64,000 nt of DNA from a virus (IMGVR_UViG_3300031726_000433:34722-98721); one strand, 5' to 3'; shown: positions 3,933-49,916, counted from the stretch's first letter. Program-made: numbers and translations. Notes: generated from the sequence alone by a model not told the origin.

Positions 3933-6248
3933 GTGCCTACTTCATATTCTTGGGAAATAATCTCAGCACCTCTAAGCGGATCATCTCCTGGTCCAGGCGT
4001 CTATGTTCCGCAACAAGCTATTTTTGGAACTGATCCGAGAAAGAAACAATTTGAAAGAGGAATAAAGTTTGCAAATGCTCCTGGAAATAGAGCAGACATG
4101 GTTGTTCATGGTGGACCAAGAGTCCAACATATCAACAGCTTAGATGCTGCTCATATGAACCCAATGAAATCCATTCCAAGAGATGGAACATATTCTGGGG
4201 CTATGAAGTTTAGATTTAGAAGTTATAGAAACTTTGGCGTACCTTCGAGTGTAAATAAGGTTGAGTATAGATCTAGTGATAGATATACAAACCCAATTCT
4301 AGATGGAACCGGAGTTTATCAAGCTGATCATGTGTGGTTTACAACTGGCTCAGTGACATTCTCGACTAATCAGATGGCTCATGCAAGAACAGTTGCGACA
4401 GCAAACAGACTCAACGATTCGAGGATTATTGTTATTGGTGGTAATGAATCATCAAGTTTGGGGTTTGCAACGACACCATCGGCGTCAATTTTCGCGTCAG
4501 GAACAACAGGATCTTGGACACAGATAGCGTCAATGCCAACACCAAAGCAATATCATGCAGCTGTTACGTTATCTGGTTCTGGAGATGTTGTGGTTTTCGG
4601 TGGAGTAAATGACATCGAAACTTTAACAGAGGAAGTAAGAGCATACAGATACGTAACTACTTCAGGAACATGGATAGCGACATCAGCTTCTTCGTCTATT
4701 CCTAGATTAGATTTTCAAGTAGTACAATTACAAGACGGTACTGTGTTTTTGCCAGGAGGAAGAAAAACTGGCCTCACTCCAACTGGAATAACAGTTAACG
4801 GAAGTTCAAACACAAAAGCTTATTGGAACATGGATAGTCTAGGTTATTCTTCTGATAGTGATGGCGCCACTGACATGTATTTGCTGACAGTTGGTGCTAC
4901 TGCTTCTATTGTTCCTGGGATTTTAGGAAATGCTTTGCAAACAAGTGCTAGTGGGACGATATACGCAGTTGATGCAGCTGGAAAACTTCCAGGTATACTT
5001 TCTGGAAATTGCACGGTTGAGTTTTGGATGAATATTCTCTCAAGTTCAACAGCATCTCCATATGTTCAAGATCAAGGTGTCTTTGCGTACAGTGGAATTT
5101 TTTGGGATGATACGGGATTACAAACGACGAGACCGATGTTCCACATTCAATGGTCAAACTCTACAAGAAAGTTAAGTTTCTACATGAGCCACATGACTAA
5201 TGGGGTGTGGACAACACCAACACCTGTTTACAGTGCTGGGACAGCTTCTCTTGATACATGGCAGCATATAGCAATAACAAAAGAACATACAGGCGTATCT
5301 TTAGATGGATCTGTAAAATATTCAACTATAAAAATGTACATAAATGGAGTTCTTGATTCTACACACGTATCACAAGAAATGTCTACCATCCTCGGAGTAG
5401 CTGGAGAATACGTTTTGTTCGGAACGTCTCCGTCTCCAAGTAATGGTTTTGGTAGTTTAATTAACCTAACTGCCGCAAAATTTGATGACGTTTGTATAAG
5501 TTCAATAACGAAGACGGCATCTCAGGTAAGAACAACATATTTGAATGGAATTGGATATATTGAACGCTCAGAGATTTTTAACACTGGCTCTAATACATTC
5601 TCACTTGTCAATCCATTTCCGATAGAGCCTCTTTCGCGTCAAGGTTACACAACAACACTACTTGATGATGGGACAGTACTTGTGTGTGGAGGCTTAGAAT
5701 CAGGCGTCGCAACGTCCGCTTATAGTCACGCAATGAGATACTATCCAACACAACAAAGTTGGTCTCTTGAACCATCCATGTCTCTACCAAGAACATCTCA
5801 TGAAGCTGTACTGGTTGGAGGCGAAGTATATGTCATGGGTGGACAGTCGTCAATATCTCCAACTGTAATAGAAAATTCAGCTGAGGTTTATAATCCAGTG
5901 ACAAGAACATGGAGAAGATTAGCTGACATGAATGAACGACGCGTGAGATTTACTGCTCACGGATATAATAAGGAACAGGGTTCAAGAGTTATTGTCTTTG
6001 GTGGCAGAACAACGCTAGCTGGTGCTTTAAGTAAGACTGTAGAGGTCTTTGTTCCATCCGATTCAGATCCACTTGGGAGATGGTATTACATGCCATCTCT
6101 AGACTTTGAAGTAGCATATCAACGCGGAGCGTGTCTTAATCCAGGAGACACAGGATCAGTGTTCAAGTTCTTGATTCCGGGTGGTACAATGACATTAGGA
6201 CCAACAACTCTAACAACATCGTCTCAACTCTATACAACCACAGGATGA
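3933..6248 (+). CDS. Kelch-repeat beta-propeller protein with inserted LamG domain (putative tail/receptor-binding protein)
   Basis: Repeated Kelch blades (IIVIGG, VVVFGG, VFLPGG, VLVCGG, VYVMGG, VIVFGG; W...SM..PR..H); LamG motifs TVEFW, WQHIAIT, MYINGVLD, FDDVCIS. Confidence 0.75.
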   Translation: MPTSYSWEIISAPLSGSSPGPGVYVPQQAIFGTDPRKKQFERGIKFANAPGNRADMVVHGGPRVQHINSLDAAHMNPMKSIPRDGTYSGAMKFRFRSYRNFGVPSSVNKVEYRSSDRYTNPILDGTGVYQADHVWFTTGSVTFSTNQMAHARTVATANRLNDSRIIVIGGNESSSLGFATTPSASIFASGTTGSWTQIASMPTPKQYHAAVTLSGSGDVVVFGGVNDIETLTEEVRAYRYVTTSGTWIATSASSSIPRLDFQVVQLQDGTVFLPGGRKTGLTPTGITVNGSSNTKAYWNMDSLGYSSDSDGATDMYLLTVGATASIVPGILGNALQTSASGTIYAVDAAGKLPGILSGNCTVEFWMNILSSSTASPYVQDQGVFAYSGIFWDDTGLQTTRPMFHIQWSNSTRKLSFYMSHMTNGVWTTPTPVYSAGTASLDTWQHIAITKEHTGVSLDGSVKYSTIKMYINGVLDSTHVSQEMSTILGVAGEYVLFGTSPSPSNGFGSLINLTAAKFDDVCISSITKTASQVRTTYLNGIGYIERSEIFNTGSNTFSLVNPFPIEPLSRQGYTTTLLDDGTVLVCGGLESGVATSAYSHAMRYYPTQQSWSLEPSMSLPRTSHEAVLVGGEVYVMGGQSSISPTVIENSAEVYNPVTRTWRRLADMNERRVRFTAHGYNKEQGSRVIVFGGRTTLAGALSKTVEVFVPSDSDPLGRWYYMPSLDFEVAYQRGACLNPGDTGSVFKFLIPGGTMTLGPTTLTTSSQLYTTTG

Positions 6249-23283: not shown

Positions 23284-23907
23284 ATGTTATTCGGTTGGGA
23301 CATCTCTACGTCAGTTATCGGTTTTACCGTCTTGGATGATTCTGGTAAATGGGTAAAGTCTGACTACTTTGATTTCAAGAAGTTAGATGCCAAGTCTCTG
23401 CACGATAAAATGGATGAATGTACTTGGTGGGTTCATGATCAACTAGAATCTTATTCTTCTGGTTCTCACCATCATTACTTTGAAGACAAGCTTGGAAATT
23501 TTGCATTTGGAAAGACTCAGATGCAAACATTGATGAAGCTTGCAGCATTCAATACTTTATTCTCATACGAAGTTATTAGAATTCACAACGAGATTTGTAC
23601 ATTCGAAGCTGGTGGATTAGGGATGGGATCAACTCATATTCATCCGTCTACTGTTAAGTCAATCATGAAACGAGAAGGTCTGATAATTCCAAAGGGATCT
23701 AAAGAAAAGAAGAAGATAACATTAGACTTTGTGATGAAAAAGCTTCCTGAATTTCCCATTGTGTATAACAGAAATGATAAACCACAGCCATTTTGCTTCG
23801 ATATGGCTGACAGTTTCATCACAGTTAGGGCTGGTTATTTGAGATCCTATTTATTAGGTGACTCCTCAACAAAAACTACAAGCGATTCGGAAGACTCTGA
23901 ATCATGA
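23284..23907 (+). CDS. RuvC-like Holliday junction resolvase
   Basis: RNase H-fold acidic residues: GWDIST..IG, FED, DMADS; HPSTVK motif; AGGAG SD. Confidence 0.75.
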   Translation: MLFGWDISTSVIGFTVLDDSGKWVKSDYFDFKKLDAKSLHDKMDECTWWVHDQLESYSSGSHHHYFEDKLGNFAFGKTQMQTLMKLAAFNTLFSYEVIRIHNEICTFEAGGLGMGSTHIHPSTVKSIMKREGLIIPKGSKEKKKITLDFVMKKLPEFPIVYNRNDKPQPFCFDMADSFITVRAGYLRSYLLGDSSTKTTSDSEDSES

Positions 23908-24778
23908 GCAGATAACGAAGGGTGACGAAGTAGTATTCTTCTGTCCTCGTTGCAATCATCATAAGCCAAAACTCAGTGTAAATCTACTAACTGAGATATT
24001 TCATTGTTGGATATGCGATTGGAAGGGCAAAAACATTGCACCTCTTCTTGAAAAGAACTCAAAAGAGAAACAGGAGTACATCGAAGAGTTAAAAGAAAAG
24101 TCGCTAACTCCAGTTGCAAAGCAGGAGAAGAAGTATGATCCACTTGTACTTCCAATAGAATTTAAAACACTTTCAAAAGAATGGTCAGGACCCTATTATA
24201 AAGCAGCAGTTAGATATCTCTCTGAAAGAGGAATCGAAAGAGAAGATATTCTTAAGTGGAAACTTGGGTATTGTGAAGATGGTGATTACAAATACAGGAT
24301 CATTATTCCGTCGTTCGACGATTATGGACATCTAAACTTCTTTACTGGTAGAGCTTTTTACGATAACAATCCCAAGAAGTATAAGAATGGAAATTTTTGT
24401 AAGGACATCATCTTTAATGACTATCTTATTGATTGGAATAAGCCAATTACAATTACTGAAGGTCCATTCGATGCTTTCAAGATAAGCAAGAACGCCATAG
24501 CACTCCAAGGAAGCACACTTAGTTATAGGTCAAAGTTGTTCTCAAAAATAGTTCTGTCTGGAGTAGATGTTCACTTCGCCATGGATACAGATGCTTTTGA
24601 AAAGCAATTAGACATTATTGACAATTTTCTATCGTACGGTGTAACATGTCATTACGTAAATCTCAATGGCAAGAAAGACGTCGGAGAAATGACGAAGAGT
24701 GAATTTGACACTGTTGCATCAAGATCAATCGAAATAAAATCGGATCTAGATATTCTTAGAATGAGGGCCAGAGTTTGA
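23858..24778 (+). CDS. DNA primase (zinc finger + TOPRIM)
   Basis: CPRCNH...FHCWICD zinc finger; YLSERGI; RIIIP; KYKN; ITEGPFDA; MDTDA; KDVGE. Confidence 0.88.
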   Translation: MTPQQKLQAIRKTLNHEQITKGDEVVFFCPRCNHHKPKLSVNLLTEIFHCWICDWKGKNIAPLLEKNSKEKQEYIEELKEKSLTPVAKQEKKYDPLVLPIEFKTLSKEWSGPYYKAAVRYLSERGIEREDILKWKLGYCEDGDYKYRIIIPSFDDYGHLNFFTGRAFYDNNPKKYKNGNFCKDIIFNDYLIDWNKPITITEGPFDAFKISKNAIALQGSTLSYRSKLFSKIVLSGVDVHFAMDTDAFEKQLDIIDNFLSYGVTCHYVNLNGKKDVGEMTKSEFDTVASRSIEIKSDLDILRMRARV

Positions 24779-27700
24779 AAATAGTACACATAAGCGATAT
24801 CCACATCAGAAATTTGAAGTATCACTCTGAGTACAAGAGAGTTTTTGAAAACTTGTATAAGAAGCTTGATCAAATTAAACCAGACTTGATAATCAACACT
24901 GGAGATACGGCTCATACAAAGACTCAGATTAGTCCCGAATTCGTAGAGATGGCATCGGAGCATATGAGAAGAGCCAGTGAGTATGCTCCTTATCACATGA
25001 TTCTTGGAAATCATGATATGAATATGATGAATGCAGATCGCCAGGATGCGATCACACCAATCATTGACAGCATTAAGAGCGATAAGATTTTCCTGCATAA
25101 GAAGTCAGGATTGTCATTTACTTTCAAGAGTGGTGGAGTAAACTACAATTTCTGGACTTTCTCACTAGCAGATAGAGAACGATATCCAATCCCATCAGAT
25201 TGGGCTAAGCTAAAGGATGATGTTAACATAGGGTTATTCCATGGTTCTGTTACTCACTGTGTAACAGATATGAATTGGAGAATGACTCAGGTAGAACATG
25301 ATCTGACAATATTCGACGGTTTAGACTTCGCTTTCCTTGGTGATATTCACAAACAACAATTCTTTAGAGAAAGAACAATAGCATATCCAGGTTCTTTGAT
25401 TCAGCAAAACTTTGGAGAAGAGCTTGAAAAAGGGTTTCTGTTGTGGGAACTGAATGGGAAATCAAAGTATAACGTTACTTCACATATCCTTGATGGAAGC
25501 AGAAAGTTCCATACAATAAGATTGAATACAGATCTCTCAATTCCAGACTTGAAAATTGAAGAGGGTTCAAGAATAAGAATAAGCCCTCCCGTAACAATAA
25601 CGTTGGCACAGCAGAAGGAAATTGAGAAGAAGGTAAAGCTTCAGTTCAAGCCTTATGATGTAATTACATTGTCTGCTGTTGATATGGGAATGCAGAAGGC
25701 CACATCTGGTAAGGACACAGCATCAATAGAAAATTTGCGTGAGCTTAATGCACAAGAAAAGCTCATACGTGAATATCTTAAGCCAAAGAATCTAAGTGAA
25801 AAGATTCTGCAAAAGGTTCTAGATCTTAATAGGAAGTATCAGATACATGTAGAACAGGATGATGATACAACAAGAAATATCCAGTGGAAAGTTAACAAAC
25901 TATTGTGGTCCAACTTCTTTAACTACGGTGAAAATAATCTAATTGACTTCTCTCAAATTCCAGGGTTGAGTGGTATCTTTGCACCGAACGCATCAGGAAA
26001 GTCTAACTTTATAGACATACTGTTAGAGACGTGTTTCGATGCTACAACTAAGGGTGTGAACAAGAACATTTATCTGATCAACGATAACAAGGATAATGCT
26101 ACAGCAATCGCTGATATCACAGTGAATGATCAGAATTACATGATCGAGAGAACTGTTGAAAGAATAAAGTATGGCACAAGAAAGCTGGAAGAGTCGAAGG
26201 AGTGGGGAAAGACATCTGTAAACTTTTCAATGTTGGACGGCCTTGGTGGAACAGAATCATTAGAAGGAACTCTTAGACCAGAGACTGAAAGAAACATAAG
26301 ACAGCGTCTCGGGACGTTCGATGACTTCATGCTCACTTCACTCTCAGCTCAGTGGAATCCGATGGACGTTATTGGAGTCAAAGAAACTAAGAGAAAGGAA
26401 ATCTTCTACAAGTTCTTTGACCTCGATATTTTTGCTCAGAAGGGATTGTTGGCTAAGGACGAGAGCAAGGAATTCTTTGGTAGATTACATGAACTTGAGG
26501 AAAGTGGTATTGAGGATGCAATTAAACAATATACATTCAAGATAAAGCAGAGAGAGGAAGCAATTGCTGAAATCAATAAGTTGATAACCACTAACACAGA
26601 CGCTCTCGAGATGATAGACGCAAATATTCTTCATTATACATCACTGAAGAAAAATGTAGACATATCTTGGAAGGACCTTGGTGACTGGGCAGGAAGAATC
26701 AAGAAAGCTGATCTTTCGATAGAGTCAAATGAGATTAAGTTAAAAGAGCTTGTAGAGAGACTGGCTGCTGTCGATATGGATCTCGCAAAGGTTCTTAAGT
26801 TAGAGCAGCGCTTTGATCTCGAAAAGTTCGAAGTTGCCGAAAAGAGAATAGAAGAGATTTTCGGGATCATAAGTGAAATCAAGATAAGAGCAAATGAAAA
26901 GACAGGCAATCTTAACTACCACAAGGAGAATGTCAAATTACTTGGTCAGGTACCATGTGGTGATAAATTTCCATCATGTAAGTTCTTGGTTAACGCATTT
27001 GATTCTAAGAATAAGATAACTGAAATAGAACTAGAGTTAGAGGATCTTTCTAAGAGAAACTTGACGCTTTATAATGAGCGTGAAGAATTGTGGCCGTTAA
27101 AGAACAAGCTTGATGCATACAGAGAATTTACAGGCGAGAAAGAATCACTAACATCTCGAAGTGATAATCTTAAACTTCAAATAGAGAATATGAAGTTAAA
27201 GATTGAAAGTCTGCAGTCTGAAAAGGAACAGGCTGTGGCCGACAAGGAGAAGTACGAAAAGGCAGAAGGCGATCTCGAAAACAATAAGATGTACGATCAG
27301 ATGATTAGCAATTGCCAGAATAACAAGATTGGAGTCGTAAAATCTTTGGAAGAACTGCAAAAAGATCTCTCGACTAATGATAGACTACTTGGAGCCGACC
27401 AGGGTATTCTAGAAAAGCTCTCTTCTCAAATATCAGAGCTTGAAGATCTTCGTGATATGTGCACGGCATTTGAAGTCTATGGCCAGGCTATGGGCAAGGA
27501 TGGAATCGCTTACCAGATTCTTGCGCAGAAGATTCCAATGATCAATGAAGAGATTAACAAGATTCTCTCCAACTCTGCAGACTTCAATGTTCACATAGAA
27601 CATGATCCGGAAGAACAATCCATCAGATTCTTTATTCAGTACGGTCAATACAAGAGTAGACTCTTGGAGTTGGGATCCGGAGCAGAGAAATTCTTAGGTT

Positions 27701-27954
27701 CTCTTGCTATCAGAGTTGGACTTCTAAACATGTCCAATCTTCCCAAGACAAACATGTTCATTATAGACGAAGGATTCGGTAAGCTTGATCCTAAGAATCT
27801 AGAGAGCATTCAGAGAATGTTTGACTACTTAAGAACAGTGTTTGAACATATCATCGTTATCAGTCACCTCGATACAATGAAGGACATGGTTGATAACATC
27901 ATAGAGATTACAACTGACGATGAAGGTTATGCTCATCTAAATGTTGGAGGATAA
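24775..27954 (+). CDS. Fused SbcD/Mre11 nuclease - SbcC/Rad50 ATPase (T4 gp47-gp46-like)
   Basis: HISDIH, TGD, LGNHD, FHG, GDIH, YPGS phosphoesterase motifs, then Walker A APNASGKS, long coiled coil, LGSGAEK signature, IIDEGFGKLD Walker B and ISH, all in one ORF. Confidence 0.92.
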   Translation: MKIVHISDIHIRNLKYHSEYKRVFENLYKKLDQIKPDLIINTGDTAHTKTQISPEFVEMASEHMRRASEYAPYHMILGNHDMNMMNADRQDAITPIIDSIKSDKIFLHKKSGLSFTFKSGGVNYNFWTFSLADRERYPIPSDWAKLKDDVNIGLFHGSVTHCVTDMNWRMTQVEHDLTIFDGLDFAFLGDIHKQQFFRERTIAYPGSLIQQNFGEELEKGFLLWELNGKSKYNVTSHILDGSRKFHTIRLNTDLSIPDLKIEEGSRIRISPPVTITLAQQKEIEKKVKLQFKPYDVITLSAVDMGMQKATSGKDTASIENLRELNAQEKLIREYLKPKNLSEKILQKVLDLNRKYQIHVEQDDDTTRNIQWKVNKLLWSNFFNYGENNLIDFSQIPGLSGIFAPNASGKSNFIDILLETCFDATTKGVNKNIYLINDNKDNATAIADITVNDQNYMIERTVERIKYGTRKLEESKEWGKTSVNFSMLDGLGGTESLEGTLRPETERNIRQRLGTFDDFMLTSLSAQWNPMDVIGVKETKRKEIFYKFFDLDIFAQKGLLAKDESKEFFGRLHELEESGIEDAIKQYTFKIKQREEAIAEINKLITTNTDALEMIDANILHYTSLKKNVDISWKDLGDWAGRIKKADLSIESNEIKLKELVERLAAVDMDLAKVLKLEQRFDLEKFEVAEKRIEEIFGIISEIKIRANEKTGNLNYHKENVKLLGQVPCGDKFPSCKFLVNAFDSKNKITEIELELEDLSKRNLTLYNEREELWPLKNKLDAYREFTGEKESLTSRSDNLKLQIENMKLKIESLQSEKEQAVADKEKYEKAEGDLENNKMYDQMISNCQNNKIGVVKSLEELQKDLSTNDRLLGADQGILEKLSSQISELEDLRDMCTAFEVYGQAMGKDGIAYQILAQKIPMINEEINKILSNSADFNVHIEHDPEEQSIRFFIQYGQYKSRLLELGSGAEKFLGSLAIRVGLLNMSNLPKTNMFIIDEGFGKLDPKNLESIQRMFDYLRTVFEHIIVISHLDTMKDMVDNIIEITTDDEGYAHLNVGG

Positions 27955-27957
27955 AAT

Positions 27958-28200
27958 ATGTGGATTAAGAATACTGACGGAAAGAAAGATGCAGTTCTAA
28001 CAATGGCTACGCTTGGATTTGCTGTGGTGCTCATAAAGGTGCTTCTAGGGGGTTCTCACTTCCACATAGGTAACCAGGAGGTTGTCATAGGAGTAATTGA
28101 CGGCAGTGTGATCGGCGCCCTTCTGACCCCAACCTTGGGAGCATATGTGGCCCGCAGGTACACAGACAAGAAGCTTCCTCCGCCAGCGGAACAGAAGTGA
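27958..28200 (+). CDS. Small two-TM membrane protein, putative holin
   Basis: Two hydrophobic segments, basic C-terminus (ARRYTDKK), GGAGG SD, upstream of a spanin-like gene. Confidence 0.45.
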   Translation: MWIKNTDGKKDAVLTMATLGFAVVLIKVLLGGSHFHIGNQEVVIGVIDGSVIGALLTPTLGAYVARRYTDKKLPPPAEQK

Positions 28201-28206
28201 GGATAT

Positions 28207-29016
28207 ATGGAAATTCCAGATAAAGTTGTCAAGATTACTTTACTTGTTTTTGTAGCTTTACTTCTTTCTGCTGTGATAATTGTTGGTGTAGTAAAGAAAG
28301 TCAATGATGATAAGGTAATTGAACTTCAAAACCAGATTGCGTCAAAGGATACTACGATAGAGACGCAGAAAGGTTTGTACGAAAAGTTATCATTGCAATC
28401 TGATGATCTTAAGGATCTACTTGACAAGAGTGACGCTCAAAATAAGACGCTCATCAAGGCTCTAGAAGCAAATAGAGAAGAGCTTTTAACTGCGAATTCA
28501 CTTGTAATTAAGTGGAAGCATGCATATGAAGCTGAAGTTGCTGGTCACCAGACTGAAATTCCTCCCGTTAATCCTGGAGGAGTTGCACGCAAGAAGGTAG
28601 AATTCGATAAAGACTTTGGTTATCTTGTAGTTCACGGATATACTTTAACAGATCCTCCACAAGCATACATCAATGTTTCACAGGGTAGACCTCTAAAGTT
28701 AACGATTGCAGTTTCTCAGGATAAAAACGGAGTGTGGCGATCAAGAACTACATCATCTGAAGAAAACATGCAAGTTGAAATAGCTCTAGCTTCAGTTAAT
28801 CCATTCATGTTAGAATCTCGTTGGTATGAGAATATTGGTGTTGGTGCAGATCTTGCCGGTGGTCAAGCTGGAACTGGATTCGGAATTTTAGCTGGAGTAG
28901 GTGCAAGTTATAAGATTGGCAAGTTCGAAGTTGGACCTCATGTCTGGATAGGTATCTCTGATAGAATTGATAAATATCTTGGCGTTCAATTCATTTGGCA
29001 TCCTTTTGCGAGGTAA
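28207..29016 (+). CDS. Membrane-anchored coiled-coil protein with C-terminal amphipathic beta-strands; putative spanin
   Basis: N-terminal TM helix, heptad coiled coil, and four Gly/aromatic alternating strands ending YLGVQFIWHPF. Confidence 0.5.
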   Translation: MEIPDKVVKITLLVFVALLLSAVIIVGVVKKVNDDKVIELQNQIASKDTTIETQKGLYEKLSLQSDDLKDLLDKSDAQNKTLIKALEANREELLTANSLVIKWKHAYEAEVAGHQTEIPPVNPGGVARKKVEFDKDFGYLVVHGYTLTDPPQAYINVSQGRPLKLTIAVSQDKNGVWRSRTTSSEENMQVEIALASVNPFMLESRWYENIGVGADLAGGQAGTGFGILAGVGASYKIGKFEVGPHVWIGISDRIDKYLGVQFIWHPFAR

Positions 29017-29018
29017 TT

Positions 29019-29327
29019 GTGCAATCAAAACAAAAGTTTGTACTCTATAATCTCCGCGAAACATATCATGAACTAGGGAATTACGAGTTCAAAATAGTTC
29101 TAGATCCAAGATCTTTTAAAAACGGACATCTTTCAGAACTTCTATGTTTAGATTCAGATGGTAAACCCATGAAGTTTGAATATGAAAAATGGGGAAGAAA
29201 GATAAACTGTAAGTTTCTAATAGACAAGAGTGTAGCAGACGGAGTTTCTACTATCAAAATGAACTTAAAAGATGATAGTGGACATCAACATGAGGGTAGA
29301 GCCTCATTCTGGATTATAAAGCCTTGA
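29019..29327 (+). CDS. Hypothetical protein
   Basis: GTG at 29019 after GAGGT SD, in frame with the track ORF 28995. Confidence 0.5.
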   Translation: MQSKQKFVLYNLRETYHELGNYEFKIVLDPRSFKNGHLSELLCLDSDGKPMKFEYEKWGRKINCKFLIDKSVADGVSTIKMNLKDDSGHQHEGRASFWIIKP

Positions 29328-29328
29328 T

Positions 29329-29535
29329 ATGACTAATGAATATAGAGTTCCAACATTCTGCCCTCAATGTGAATTTTTAATGAAAGGTAAGTCAACGTAC
29401 ACTTACATGGATCATGGTGTCTGCGTGAATTGTTTTATTCAATTTGTGGAAGGTAGAGAAGAAAGATGGAAGTCTGGATGGAGGCCATCGCCTGAACAAC
29501 TTGAAGCTTTTAAGAAATCTATTTCAAGTTATTGA
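29329..29535 (+). CDS. Small zinc-finger protein
   Basis: CPQC...CVNC, then EGREERWKSGWRP. Confidence 0.55.
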   Translation: MTNEYRVPTFCPQCEFLMKGKSTYTYMDHGVCVNCFIQFVEGREERWKSGWRPSPEQLEAFKKSISSY

Positions 29536-29564
29536 TATCTACGTCACTTTTCCACAGCTAGCCT

Positions 29565-29575
29565 CTAGTTAGAAG
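29565..29575 (+). promoter_or_regulatory. Putative late promoter (TANTTA motif)
   Basis: CTAGTTAGAAG in the gap before the terminase operon. Confidence 0.55.
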
Positions 29576-29604
29576 TGGGAAACTTTCTTTTCGGAGCACC
29601 CAAA

Positions 29605-29997
29605 ATGGATAAAAAGCCTGAGAGTTTTGAAATGACTGAATACGGTGAAGAGCACCGTCATTTAGATAAGACACTTTCTGTTATAACTGAGATAGTAAGA
29701 GATCAAGTTCATGATTCTCCAGCTGTTAATGTGAGGGTTACATTTACTGGAAACCTCATGAAGTTGACATATCATTGCTATGAAATGCACCTTCCAGTTA
29801 GAATGAGAGATGTTGAAGAGACTGCTAGAAAAGCACTAACAGAAACTGTAAAGAACATCAAGAAGGAATTTAAGTCTCGTACAAAGGAAACACTAGATCT
29901 TTCTGAAAAGAAGGAGATGGAGAATTACTCTGTACAGAAGGTTAGCTTGAATGAACGTTACATGTATGCTTCGTGGCGTTTCTTTGAGATTGGATAA
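29605..29997 (+). CDS. Hypothetical protein directly upstream of terminase
   Basis: ATG 29605 after GGAG; abuts the terminase start; preceded by a TANTTA motif. Confidence 0.55.
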   Translation: MDKKPESFEMTEYGEEHRHLDKTLSVITEIVRDQVHDSPAVNVRVTFTGNLMKLTYHCYEMHLPVRMRDVEETARKALTETVKNIKKEFKSRTKETLDLSEKKEMENYSVQKVSLNERYMYASWRFFEIG

Positions 29998-31683
29998 ATG
30001 AACAAATCAATTCTGCGCAATGAAATCATCATGTGCGGAAAGGATCCTTGTTACTTCATACGAAAGTATGTTAAGATCAAGCATCCTGTAAGGGGGCTCA
30101 TACCCTTTACAATGTTTGACTATCAAGAAGAACTAGTTCAAGACTACGTTAAGCACCGTTTTAACGTAGTCTTAAAAGCAAGACAACTTGGTATATCTGA
30201 AGTCACTGCTGCATATGCAACGTGGCTGATGTTATTCCACAGAGAAAAGAATATCATTGTAATGGCGTCCAAGGCAGATACTGCCAAGAACATTATTCGT
30301 AAGGTTGCCACAGCTCTAAAGAAACTTCCGAAGTGGTTGATGTTGGCAGATGTTACAACCGATAATAAGTTGTCAATAGAACTAAGTAACGGATCAAGAA
30401 TAGCTGCGATTGCAACGTCAGAAGATGCAGGACGTTCAGAAGCTGTTTCATTTCTTATCATCGACGAAGCTGCATTCGTCCAAAGATTCGATGAGTTGTG
30501 GACAGGACTTTATCCTACAGTTGCTGCTGGTGGTAGAGCTGTCGTGTTGTCTACTCCAAATGGCGTAGGAAACAAATTCCATCAGATTTATTCAGAGGCA
30601 GAAGAGGGTACCAACGACTTTAAGCCTCATGTGTTTATGTGGTGGAGGCATCCTGAAAGAATCTCTGACTTAAGAGACGATCCAGATAGAAAGGGTTTCA
30701 AGACATCGACGTGGCTTGTTAATGAAATCAAAGCAGCAAACATGTCTCCAAGAGACGTCGCTCAGGAACTTGAATGCAACTTTAATGCGTCTGGTGATAC
30801 TGTCATAACGACAGAAGCAATGAATTGGTTGAGAGATGGAACGATGCAGCCAGCAGAGAGAGCTCACTGGGATAGGAATCTTTTTCGTTGGTTTCAAGCT
30901 CACGGAAAGGCAAGATACGTAATATCGGCAGACGTTGCCAGAGGCGATGGAAGAGACCACTCTGCTGCACACGTATGGGATGCTCAATCAATGTCTCAGT
31001 GCGCAGAGTATTATGGAAAGGTTCCAGTCGAAGAGTTTGCTAAAATCCTATGTGATCTTGGACATGAATACAATAATGCGTTGCTTGTTGTTGAAAATAC
31101 GTCTATAGGTTTGGCTTGTATCGAACATATAAAACTTCTCAACTATGAGAATGTGTACTTCTCTAGAAGAGGAGATCAGAGACCAGGTGAAGCTGTTAAT
31201 ATGTATTGGGGACCAAACACTGAAGATCTTGTTCCTGGGTTCACAACTTCTCAAAAGAATAGATCGTTGATGATAGCAAAGCTAGAAGAGTATATAAGAA
31301 ATAAAATCATCACGATAAGATCTGAAAGATTCACGGAAGAATTAAGAACATTCATCTGGAATAACGGTAGACCTGAAGCTATGAAAGGTTATAACGACGA
31401 CCTTATAATGGCTGCCGCCATTGGTGTCTGGATTAGAGATACGTATCTATCACCGTCCTTTGCTTCTTCAGACATACAAGGCAAATTGCTTGGTGGAATA
31501 GAGATGGATAGGACATACAATAGTCAAATAAAAGGTGCCTCGAAGGATCCTCGTGCTTCTGCAAGCAATTCTCCAGCGCAGAGGGGTAATTATAAGGGTA
31601 GTATTGGAGCGAGAGTAAGACTACCAAATGGCATAACTGAAGATTTTAGTTGGTTGGTAGATGGTATCATAAGTAAGGGGTAA
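29998..31683 (+). CDS. terL: Terminase large subunit (T4 gp17-like)
   Basis: DPCYFIRKYVKI, Q motif (DYQE), KARQLGIS Walker A, LIIDEAAF Walker B, STPNG coupling motif, ADVARG and DDLIMA nuclease residues. Confidence 0.96.
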   Translation: MNKSILRNEIIMCGKDPCYFIRKYVKIKHPVRGLIPFTMFDYQEELVQDYVKHRFNVVLKARQLGISEVTAAYATWLMLFHREKNIIVMASKADTAKNIIRKVATALKKLPKWLMLADVTTDNKLSIELSNGSRIAAIATSEDAGRSEAVSFLIIDEAAFVQRFDELWTGLYPTVAAGGRAVVLSTPNGVGNKFHQIYSEAEEGTNDFKPHVFMWWRHPERISDLRDDPDRKGFKTSTWLVNEIKAANMSPRDVAQELECNFNASGDTVITTEAMNWLRDGTMQPAERAHWDRNLFRWFQAHGKARYVISADVARGDGRDHSAAHVWDAQSMSQCAEYYGKVPVEEFAKILCDLGHEYNNALLVVENTSIGLACIEHIKLLNYENVYFSRRGDQRPGEAVNMYWGPNTEDLVPGFTTSQKNRSLMIAKLEEYIRNKIITIRSERFTEELRTFIWNNGRPEAMKGYNDDLIMAAAIGVWIRDTYLSPSFASSDIQGKLLGGIEMDRTYNSQIKGASKDPRASASNSPAQRGNYKGSIGARVRLPNGITEDFSWLVDGIISKG

Positions 31684-31685
31684 AA

Positions 31686-32291
31686 ATGTTTGTATATGGA
31701 TTGATTGACCCATTTTCAAAACAACTTCGTTACGTTGGTAAAACGGAAGTTGGAGCTTCAAGGCCTAAGGCTCACTGGACAAGTCACAAAAATAGAAATG
31801 ACCGCTGTCATACGTGGGTACGATCTATTCTAAATAAAGAATCAATTCCGGAAGTAGAAATTTTGCAAAGTTGTAATAATAGAAATGAATTAAATGACGC
31901 TGAAATGTTTTGGATTGGATATCTAAAGATGACAGGGTGCAGATTAACAAATATGACTCCTGGTGGAGATGGTGTCGCGAAAGGGAATACACCCTGGAAC
32001 AAAGGAGCGACGTACTCAAGTCCAGCTATTTCAAAAGCAAAAAGAGGAGTCAAAACACGCCCATGCTCAGACGAAGTAAAAAGAAAAATATCTGAGAGTC
32101 TCAAAGGTAGAACACACTCTGCTGAGAGAGTAGAAAAGATCGCTGCAGCTCACAGAGGAAAGAAGCAAAGCAAAGAGCAAGTTGAAAAATTTACAAAGTC
32201 AATCAGGTCCTACTGGGATAGCTCTGAATCAGCCGAACATCGTCAAATCTTATCTGACAATATGAAAAAGATGAGAGTGACAAAGGGATAA
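31686..32291 (+). CDS. GIY-YIG homing endonuclease with NUMOD3-like DNA-binding repeats
   Basis: VYGLIDP...RYVGKT, E..WI, LTNMTPGGDG; PWNKG; KRKISESLKGRTHS repeats. Confidence 0.85.
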   Translation: MFVYGLIDPFSKQLRYVGKTEVGASRPKAHWTSHKNRNDRCHTWVRSILNKESIPEVEILQSCNNRNELNDAEMFWIGYLKMTGCRLTNMTPGGDGVAKGNTPWNKGATYSSPAISKAKRGVKTRPCSDEVKRKISESLKGRTHSAERVEKIAAAHRGKKQSKEQVEKFTKSIRSYWDSSESAEHRQILSDNMKKMRVTKG

Positions 32292-49145: not shown

Positions 49146-49916
49146 ATGCATAAACTAATTCTATCGATCTTGATGTCATTACTTCTTGTTTCATGTTCTT
49201 CATGTTTTAGAAGATATCCAGATCCATCTGGAAGAGATGCAAGAGAGATGATGTCACAGACTGTAAAGATAGACGTCACAGTACATGGAATGTCACTATC
49301 TTTAGATAAGGATGGTAACGTCATAAAGAAAGAAGATAAGGCTGAGTGGACCGGATCTGGTGTCGTTGTTGTCGTTGACCACGATTCAAATCTAAGTCTT
49401 GTCCTATCAGCTGATCACGTTGTCGATATTCCAAAGTTAATCGAGATGGAAGATGAAGAAGGCAATCCAAAGTTATTCTTTTCTAAGAGCGCTGTTATAA
49501 CTGTAGAAAGACTCAATGGATCAACTTGTAATGCAATTCCAGCTGAAATGGATCCAGATAATGATATCGGGACGATTGTAACAGATTGCATCGCTGGAGA
49601 GGCTGTTGTAATAGCTGACAGTCTTCCTCCAGTCGGATCTATAGTTACTGCTTCTGGAGCTCCACTTGGTATTCATCCAGCTGGAGTGTTCATCGTGACA
49701 GATGGTAGATACGTCGGTCTTGAAGAGAATGGCAAAGTAGTTGTTACACTTGCAACAACGTTTGGTGGTTCTGGTGGAGGAATCTTCTACAGAGGAAAGC
49801 TTTTTGGAATAGTTACGAATAAGGCTGGAAGATTTGAACATGCCAATACGGGGACATCTTTAGATCCAATCAAGAAAATAGTAAAGTCCGTCCTAGATAA
49901 AGCAAATGCCAATTGA
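49146..49916 (+). CDS. Trypsin-like serine protease, predicted lipoprotein
   Basis: Signal peptide with lipobox (MHKLILSILMSLLLVSC); GSGVVV, LSADHV (His), DNDIG (Asp), GGSGGG (Ser), LFGIV. Confidence 0.8.
   Translation: MHKLILSILMSLLLVSCSSCFRRYPDPSGRDAREMMSQTVKIDVTVHGMSLSLDKDGNVIKKEDKAEWTGSGVVVVVDHDSNLSLVLSADHVVDIPKLIEMEDEEGNPKLFFSKSAVITVERLNGSTCNAIPAEMDPDNDIGTIVTDCIAGEAVVIADSLPPVGSIVTASGAPLGIHPAGVFIVTDGRYVGLEENGKVVVTLATTFGGSGGGIFYRGKLFGIVTNKAGRFEHANTGTSLDPIKKIVKSVLDKANAN

Follow-up and report, generated by a model that had tools for sequence, protein, structure and literature searches.

p269, a candidate single-protein spanin analogue with predicted outer-membrane-type C-terminal strands in a virus of a probable Bacteroidota host

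Introduction

Two classes of spanin have been described in phages of Gram-negative hosts. Two-component spanins (lambda Rz/Rz1, T4 PseT.3/PseT.2) pair an inner-membrane protein with an outer-membrane lipoprotein; the unimolecular spanin (u-spanin) T1 gp11 is one polypeptide, held in the outer membrane by a lipid at its N-terminus and in the inner membrane by a C-terminal transmembrane helix. Among 677 phages of Gram-negative hosts, 91 had no recognisable spanin, Bacteroides and Croceibacter phages included (Kongari et al. 2018, PMC6139136), and recent surveys report only unimolecular spanins in Bacteroidetes phages. A non-spanin form of outer-membrane disruption has been described for phage phiKT, which lacks recognisable spanins and encodes the disruptin gp28 (bioRxiv 10.1101/515445). 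Here we describe p269, a 269-residue protein encoded in a 64-kb stretch of viral DNA (the window), which is the right-hand part of a 98.7-kb IMG/VR virus record (IMGVR_UViG_3300031726_000433) rated 48% complete by CheckV. It is preceded by tm80, a small membrane protein of 80 residues.

A first-pass annotation, made from the DNA sequence alone, had proposed that this locus holds a holin-like gene followed by a single-protein spanin of inverted topology. Our analysis leads us to suggest, with a probability of about one half, that p269 is an envelope protein of the lysis stage, a single polypeptide with the task of a spanin. The suggestion is built on the predicted structure of the protein, on the composition of its C-terminal strands and on the position of its remote homologs, which directly follow endolysin genes.

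Results

Predicted structure and topology of p269

The AlphaFold2 model of p269, run with 146 sequences, has a pLDDT of 95.5 and a pTM of 0.81. It divides the protein into an N-terminal hydrophobic helix, a small region of mixed helix and hairpin, a β domain and a C-terminal set of four strands (Table 1). Apart from the anchor, DSSP assigns helices to residues 31–47, 68–71 and 77–88, around a conserved β-hairpin at residues 51–61, and residues 95–264 are all β. The coiled coil of the first-pass annotation is therefore not present in the model as more than these short helices, whereas the β-rich middle that it described is there as eight strands. The hairpin carries the motif T-I-E-x-x-K-G-x-Y-x-K-L, in which T50 and E52 are invariant in our family alignment (A1). 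Three members of the family (P0035, P0038 and P0039; loci L002/L013 and L018) have unrelated sequence at their residues ~105–160 in this alignment, with both ends of the protein conserved; the replacement falls in the first part of the middle β domain and has the look of a module exchanged within the predicted periplasmic domain.

Of 207 family members, 200 have an N-terminal hydrophobic segment; the median length of its apolar run is 19 residues. In agreement with what had been proposed, the segment of p269 has no lipobox: the protein contains no cysteine at all. We see by eye no small-x-small cleavage site in the N-terminus, and in the model the helix is unbroken to residue 47. The N-terminal helix is thus predicted to be, probably, an uncleaved inner-membrane anchor in the N-in/C-out orientation. 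The charge pattern around the helix, with basic residues after it, resembles that of lambda Rz.

Although p269 itself lacks cysteine, its relatives offer an indication of topology. About 20 family members have a pair of cysteines flanking the loop that joins strands 3 and 4 of the C-terminal set, and another subfamily has a CxxC-type pair near residue 120. As the cysteines appear and vanish as pairs within subfamilies, they are likely to form disulfides and hence to lie in an extracytoplasmic location, which suggests that the part of p269 after the helix is outside the cytoplasm. A different arrangement of cysteine occurs in 31 of the 207 relatives (P0041, P0077, P0081, P0118 and others), where a cysteine stands just after the N-terminal hydrophobic segment, in some cases in a lipobox-like setting (LLASC, IFSSC, VISC). 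Some lineages of the family may use a lipid anchor in place of the helix.

The four C-terminal strands

The four amphipathic strands quoted in the first-pass annotation coincide with DSSP strands at residues 210–221, 224–237, 240–250 and 254–264, which are 11–14 residues long. Column statistics over the 146 sequences separate these strands from those of the middle domain. Charged residues make up 19% of all strand columns in the middle domain and 7% in the last four strands; on the non-hydrophobic face alone the values are 33% and 15%, and on the same face glycine rises from 7% in the middle domain to 35% in the last four strands. By these measures the middle domain has the character of a soluble sandwich, and the last four strands, unlike it, appear to have the composition of a transmembrane barrel. 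A monomeric barrel of 12 strands running over residues 95–264 was considered and rejected, since the strands of the middle domain are short and one of their faces is rich in charges, as in a soluble sandwich.

Other features of the C-terminal segment are of the same kind. Conserved aromatic residues are located at both ends of the strands (W206, Y207, Y235, F240, W247, Y257, W264 and F267), and a short basic turn, K-I-G-K, joins strands 2 and 3. The number of strands is even, which would place both ends of the segment on the periplasmic side. The segment closes with a W-x-P-F motif that is found in 171 of 207 family members and forms the very C-terminus in only 11 of them.

We compared a model of residues 49–269 (pLDDT 95.8) with 48,161 solved chains by VIA; the same comparison with the full model was dominated by the long helix. 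Membrane barrels or pores aligned to residues 205–269 account for 23 of the best 50 rows, with Z of 4.4–5.5 and none above 5.5. The barrels among these best 50 include OmpA, OprF, OmpW, KdgM, CarO, PagP, PagL, NspA, BrkA, TamA and designed transmembrane barrels, and the pores include those of gasdermin, membrane attack complex and secretin type. The anchors of trimeric autotransporters were also matched (AtaA, Z 5.0; Hia, Z 4.7). We take these matches to mean that residues 205–269 are, in the model, shaped like a piece of barrel wall, a statement about form and not about homology. Foldseek gave no match in the PDB at E ≤ 1e-3 with either model, and a sequence-profile search of the PDB returned only coiled-coil noise and a non-significant match to OmpA.

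The p269 family and its remote relatives

Close homologs of p269 number 43 (90% clusters) and are 257–285 residues long. At E ≤ 1e-3 the family comprises 212 representatives of 50%-identity clusters, which have a common length and architecture; all are metagenomic and phage-only, and some are on contigs of 160–200 kb. An identical copy of p269 is carried on a contig of 176.8 kb. A scan of genome contigs gave one weak match, in a 905-residue cellular protein of a metagenome-assembled Bacteroidota genome, which we have treated as a probable chance match. The protein has no Pfam family, and its PHROG matches are weak and confined to residues 14–93: phrog_739, ‘Rz-like spanin’, at E 1.5e-3 (residues 16–93) and phrog_89 at E 0.035. 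DUF6808 and DUF6549 do not match p269 at E ≤ 0.1, nor are they among the 25 most-matched Pfam families (of 48 matched at E ≤ 0.01) for the 146 family members.

Against predicted viral structures (BFVD) Foldseek gave 11 matches at E ≤ 1e-3, with E values from 1.2e-12 to 1.5e-6; they include gp059 of Cellulophaga phage phi17:2, annotated ‘structural protein’ (R9ZZB8, E 1.3e-10), a Maribacter phage protein and DUF6808 proteins (one at E 1.5e-6). A crAss-like protein labelled ‘lysis regulatory protein-like’ fell just short of the cut-off (E 1.5e-3). The relation to gp059 can also be detected in sequence profiles. The profile of the p269 family (A2) finds gp059 in the phi17:2 genome at E 2.6e-6, and hhalign of A2 with a profile of 12 gp059 relatives (A4) gives a probability of 96.1% and an E of 2.8e-9 over 212 columns, near full length. 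The two families have in common the motifs T-I-E..K-G-x-Y-x-K-L and P-L-x-L...Q..D-G-x-W. In the gp059 family 11 of 12 proteins end exactly in phenylalanine. We found no match of A2 or DUF6808 in Flavobacterium phage immuto, and none of DUF6808 in crAss001.

The remote relatives are neighbours of endolysins. The gp059 gene of phi17:2 overlaps the end of an Amidase_3 endolysin gene. In IMG/VR relatives, the gp059-type gene is the last of a cassette that begins with a holin (PF05105) and a Muramidase, with a holin and a GH19-type endolysin (phrog_181, E 3.6e-48), with a holin and DUF5675, or with Amidase_3 and a homing endonuclease. DUF5675 has been placed with peptidase-type lysins in a 2026 preprint. 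The homing endonuclease (phrog_314, E 1.2e-48), at positions 4225–4932 of locus L030, is an insertion that separates the Amidase_3 endolysin from the gp059-type gene. The cassettes share an upstream gene of 650 residues and mostly a downstream virion gene too, and therefore belong to one lineage, in which the endolysin swaps are events at one position.

The second setting is a Bacteroidota prophage (L041), in which a DUF6808/DUF6549 protein follows a small transmembrane gene, a Glucosaminidase and another small transmembrane gene. A hydrophobic segment is present at the N-terminus of this protein, whose last residues are ...I-I-R-F; it has apparently only one C-terminal hairpin, as read from a non-significant alignment. 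The DUF6808 model also matches a cellular OMP_b-brl_2 protein of 395 residues, which is located beside an extracytoplasmic function (ECF) sigma factor in a Bacteroidota genome (G064; L042, 7557–8744), and this suggests that the Pfam family captures generic barrel strands.

Gene context

The features of the locus are collected in Table 1; all large genes of the window are on the plus strand. The open reading frames (ORFs) of tm80 and p269 are packed tightly against their neighbours, and each is preceded by a Shine–Dalgarno (SD) site, GGAGGA at 27946–27951 for tm80 and GAGGA at 28199–28203 for p269. Promoter and terminator scans around the two genes gave no more sites than were found in shuffled sequence.

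Table 1. Features of the p269 locus and parts of the p269 protein, with positions in the window
Feature	Position	Strand	Basis or remark
Primase	23858-24778	+	Gene order around p269
SbcCD nuclease, fused Mre11/Rad50-type	24775-27954	+	1059 residues
tm80, small membrane protein, candidate holin or p269 partner	27958-28200	+	ORF and SD site
p269, envelope protein, candidate single-protein spanin analogue	28207-29016	+	ORF, SD site and family of 212 representatives
p269 residues 10-30, N-terminal hydrophobic segment	28234-28296	+	Within continuous AlphaFold2 helix 5-47
p269 residues 31-94, helix, β-hairpin motif and second helix	28297-28488	+	DSSP; source of the weak Rz-like and coiled-coil matches
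p269 residues 95-197, predicted eight-strand soluble (periplasmic) β domain	28489-28797	+	DSSP; strands alternate hydrophobic and charged columns
p269 residues 206-267, W-Y lead-in, four amphipathic strands and W-x-P-F; predicted outer-membrane-embedded	28822-29007	+	Composition, W-x-P-F, VIA
Three small conserved genes (110, 68 and 140 residues; p110, p68, p140)	28995-29997	+	Between p269 and large terminase
Large terminase (TerL)	29998-31683	+	Gene order around p269
GIY-YIG endonuclease (named by eye), 201-residue ORF	31686-32291	+	Between terminase and portal
Portal gene	3′ of the GIY-YIG ORF	+	Gene order around p269

The upstream protein, tm80, has two hydrophobic segments (residues ~13–33 and ~44–66) and a basic C-terminal tail, which is the shape of a class II holin with two transmembrane domains. 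Its Atlas model is a two-helix hairpin, and its Atlas neighbours are unnamed viral two-helix proteins. The holin-like gene of the first-pass annotation thus stands as far as its shape is concerned, but not with any support from families, as tm80 matches nothing in Pfam or PHROG, holin families included, and there is no endolysin in its neighbourhood. In 14 of 21 related loci the gene immediately upstream of the p269 homolog encodes a homolog of tm80. The protein may be a holin or a partner of p269.

A lipoprotein that could serve as outer-membrane spanin (o-spanin) had been reported missing from the vicinity, and this proved correct. When all six frames of the 98.7-kb record were scanned for a lipobox, one candidate came up, at 49146–49916 (256 residues), which is 21 kb away. 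Within 28207–28994 there is no embedded ORF of at least 40 residues on the plus strand, and the sole overlapping ORF on that strand is p110 (start 28995), which has no lipobox. The distant candidate is on the plus strand among tail and baseplate genes; it has a textbook lipoprotein signal, MHKLILSILMSLLLVSC, and no Pfam or PHROG match.

Among cultured phages, Flavobacterium phage immuto has the nearest terminase (40% identity), and the host is probably a Bacteroidota bacterium. Searches of 50,697 phage records with the locus and with protein P0217 by blastn and tblastn gave no match. The SbcCD gene fuses a Mre11-like phosphoesterase and a Rad50/SbcC-like ATPase in one protein, and related contigs keep the fusion; locus L018 has SbcC as a gene of its own, of 575 residues. 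In related loci the 110-, 68- and 140-residue genes always separate p269 from the large terminase, and no family is assigned to any of the three. The 68-residue protein has a CxxC...CxxC zinc-ribbon pattern, and the 140-residue protein may, by its position, be the small terminase. In several relatives the terminase and portal genes are directly adjacent, without the GIY-YIG ORF between them.

Discussion

The way in which p269 might act as a spanin can be outlined as follows. The uncleaved N-terminal helix would insert the protein in the inner membrane with the N-terminus inside and the C-terminus outside, as sequence, AlphaFold2 model and cysteine pairs indicate, and the β domain would then sit in the periplasm. 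The last ~60 residues, that is the four strands and the aromatic end motif, would enter the outer membrane within an oligomeric β-barrel, probably through the β-barrel assembly machinery (BAM) of the host. Once the endolysin has removed the peptidoglycan, the doubly anchored oligomers would destroy the outer membrane, either by drawing the inner and outer membranes towards each other or through the formation of a large pore. More tentatively, we propose that this is a third spanin architecture, in which an N-terminal helix in the inner membrane is combined with a BAM-inserted oligomeric barrel of four strands per protomer, and that it is widely used by Bacteroidota phages, including the phi4:1 gp057 family and DUF6808/DUF6549.

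A number of observations weigh against the spanin proposal. The gene of p269 is not beside an endolysin: eight syntenic loci keep the order SbcCD, tm80, p269, p110, p68, p140, TerL and portal, and in two other lineages the gene is among replication and auxiliary genes (between GroEL and SbcC in one, with an unrelated two-transmembrane ORF of 62 residues in front, and between ClpP and an aminotransferase in the other). None of six endolysin Pfam families searched for is present in the 98.7-kb record, itself 48% complete. Endolysin adjacency is seen in the remote homologs, but it is confined to two independent lineages; the homology to gp059 is remote, at below 20% identity, and DUF6808 is linked by fold only (hhalign to one DUF6808 protein gives a non-significant probability of 5%). 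At the C-terminus, two or three mostly basic residues usually follow the phenylalanine in the p269 family, which is not a canonical terminal β-signal, and the VIA scores do not reach the level at which real arrangements can be told from common ones. The periplasmic part of the AlphaFold2 model is compact, an estimated ~6–8 nm, which is short for a normal periplasm. Finally, the phi4:1 homolog, gp057, was detected in virion preparations and carries the annotation ‘structural protein, experimental MS/MS proteomics’. Of the new spanin architecture put forward in the first-pass annotation, then, the anchor, the β domain and the outer-membrane-protein-like strands are kept family-wide, but the location of the gene between SbcCD and the terminase genes, with no adjacent endolysin, lends it no support; likewise, the endolysin neighbourhoods sought for its homologs exist directly upstream of the remote ones and are missing from the window’s own lineage. 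T4-type phages scatter their lysis genes, so that the gene context of p269 neither supports nor excludes a role in lysis.

The tandem mass spectrometry (MS/MS) annotation of gp057 speaks for an alternative in which p269 belongs with the virion, as might a tail or ejection accessory protein that enters the host envelope at infection; the position after the endolysin would then mark the start of the structural block. The conserved virion structural gene (phrog_31752) that follows the gp059-type gene in phi17:2, L031–L033 and L035 is consistent with this, as is the lineage of phi17:2 itself, in which only holin and endolysin are swapped and the gp059-type gene stays with the structural genes. The downstream gene is, however, a different one in L030, L034 and L041, and in the window’s lineage, L009 and L018 the gene is outside the structural module, among replication and auxiliary genes. 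In three lineages, moreover, it forms a pair with a small membrane protein. The MS/MS signal could be a real virion role or could be vesicle carry-over, as an abundant late membrane protein may co-purify with virions on vesicles. On balance we consider a virion function unlikely. A lack of endolysin nearby and a location at the end of a replication-gene operon would also suit a non-lytic envelope protein of infection, engaged in superinfection exclusion, the control of lysis timing or remodelling of the outer membrane. T4-type phages scatter such membrane proteins among early genes, and the crAss-like relative by fold bears a label that refers to lysis regulation. Yet the proteins known for exclusion or as antiholins are small, with no strands like those of outer-membrane proteins, and the remote homologs of p269 are exactly in spanin position; of the alternatives this seems to us the least probable.

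The compact periplasmic part bears on how p269 might act. It would imply either an extended state before action or a pore variant, in which p269 is a lytic pore former of the outer membrane rather than a bridge: each protomer would contribute two hairpins to a large β-barrel of gasdermin or secretin type, and the helix would hold the protein until release. Four strands per protomer would fit such a pore, and the best VIA rows for residues 205–269 include the pores of RCD-1 and of gasdermins B, D and E, the C5b8 complex and the pIV secretin (Z 4.5–5.5); by our estimate from the AlphaFold2 model, the periplasmic part seems not to be long enough to reach from one membrane to the other. These Z scores are, however, equal to those of small monomeric barrels and autotransporter anchors, the aromatic motif at the C-terminus favours insertion of BAM type over self-insertion, and no mechanism for release of the N-terminal helix is visible. 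We therefore regard the pore former as improbable, and prefer the doubly anchored, spanin-like p269.

If p269 does act as a doubly anchored spanin, its family is a concrete candidate for how phages without a recognisable spanin open the outer membrane, and it would explain why many Bacteroidota phages lack a recognisable lipoprotein spanin. It would further exemplify the use of the host barrel-assembly pathway by a phage protein for lysis, and would provide a function for two Pfam DUF families and one PHROG. The candidate can be tested in culturable systems, the Cellulophaga phages phi4:1 and phi17:2, and with Flavobacterium genetics.

Compared with two-component spanins, p269 is alike in its predicted N-terminal inner-membrane anchor with the rest of the protein in the periplasm, in the weak Rz-like PHROG match on the anchor and helix, in the gene position of its remote homologs after an endolysin and in its presumed task, to disrupt the outer membrane. 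It differs in having no lipoprotein partner gene and no cysteine; its periplasmic part is mostly β and not two coiled coils, and contact with the outer membrane would come from its own β strands. With T1 gp11 it shares the proposal that one polypeptide reaches both membranes, and a β-rich periplasmic domain. The predicted topology of p269 is inverted relative to gp11, there is no lipobox, and the C-terminus consists of four barrel-type strands and not of a transmembrane helix. The disruptin gp28 is a different kind of molecule again, small, cationic and peptide-like, with neither membrane anchors nor a β domain.

The C-terminus of p269 resembles the oligomeric barrels with four strands per protomer, namely the trimeric autotransporter anchors of YadA, Hia and AtaA, and TolC: its four predicted strands are long and amphipathic, and an aromatic motif stands near the end. 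Unlike these, p269 has no apparent cleavable signal peptide and no stalk through the barrel. The likeness is in predicted form only, and our searches found no sequence relation to four-strand barrel anchors. We found no description of a barrel-anchored spanin of this architecture in literature searches on such spanins, DUF6808 and DUF6549. The closest counterparts are phi4:1 gp057 and phi17:2 gp059 (phrog_38578) and the DUF6808/DUF6549 proteins, all from Bacteroidota phages or prophages, which have the same architecture and conserved motifs; unlike p269, they end exactly in phenylalanine and adjoin endolysins. In its proposed action p269 is spanin-like, yet it is without the defining features of both known spanin classes.

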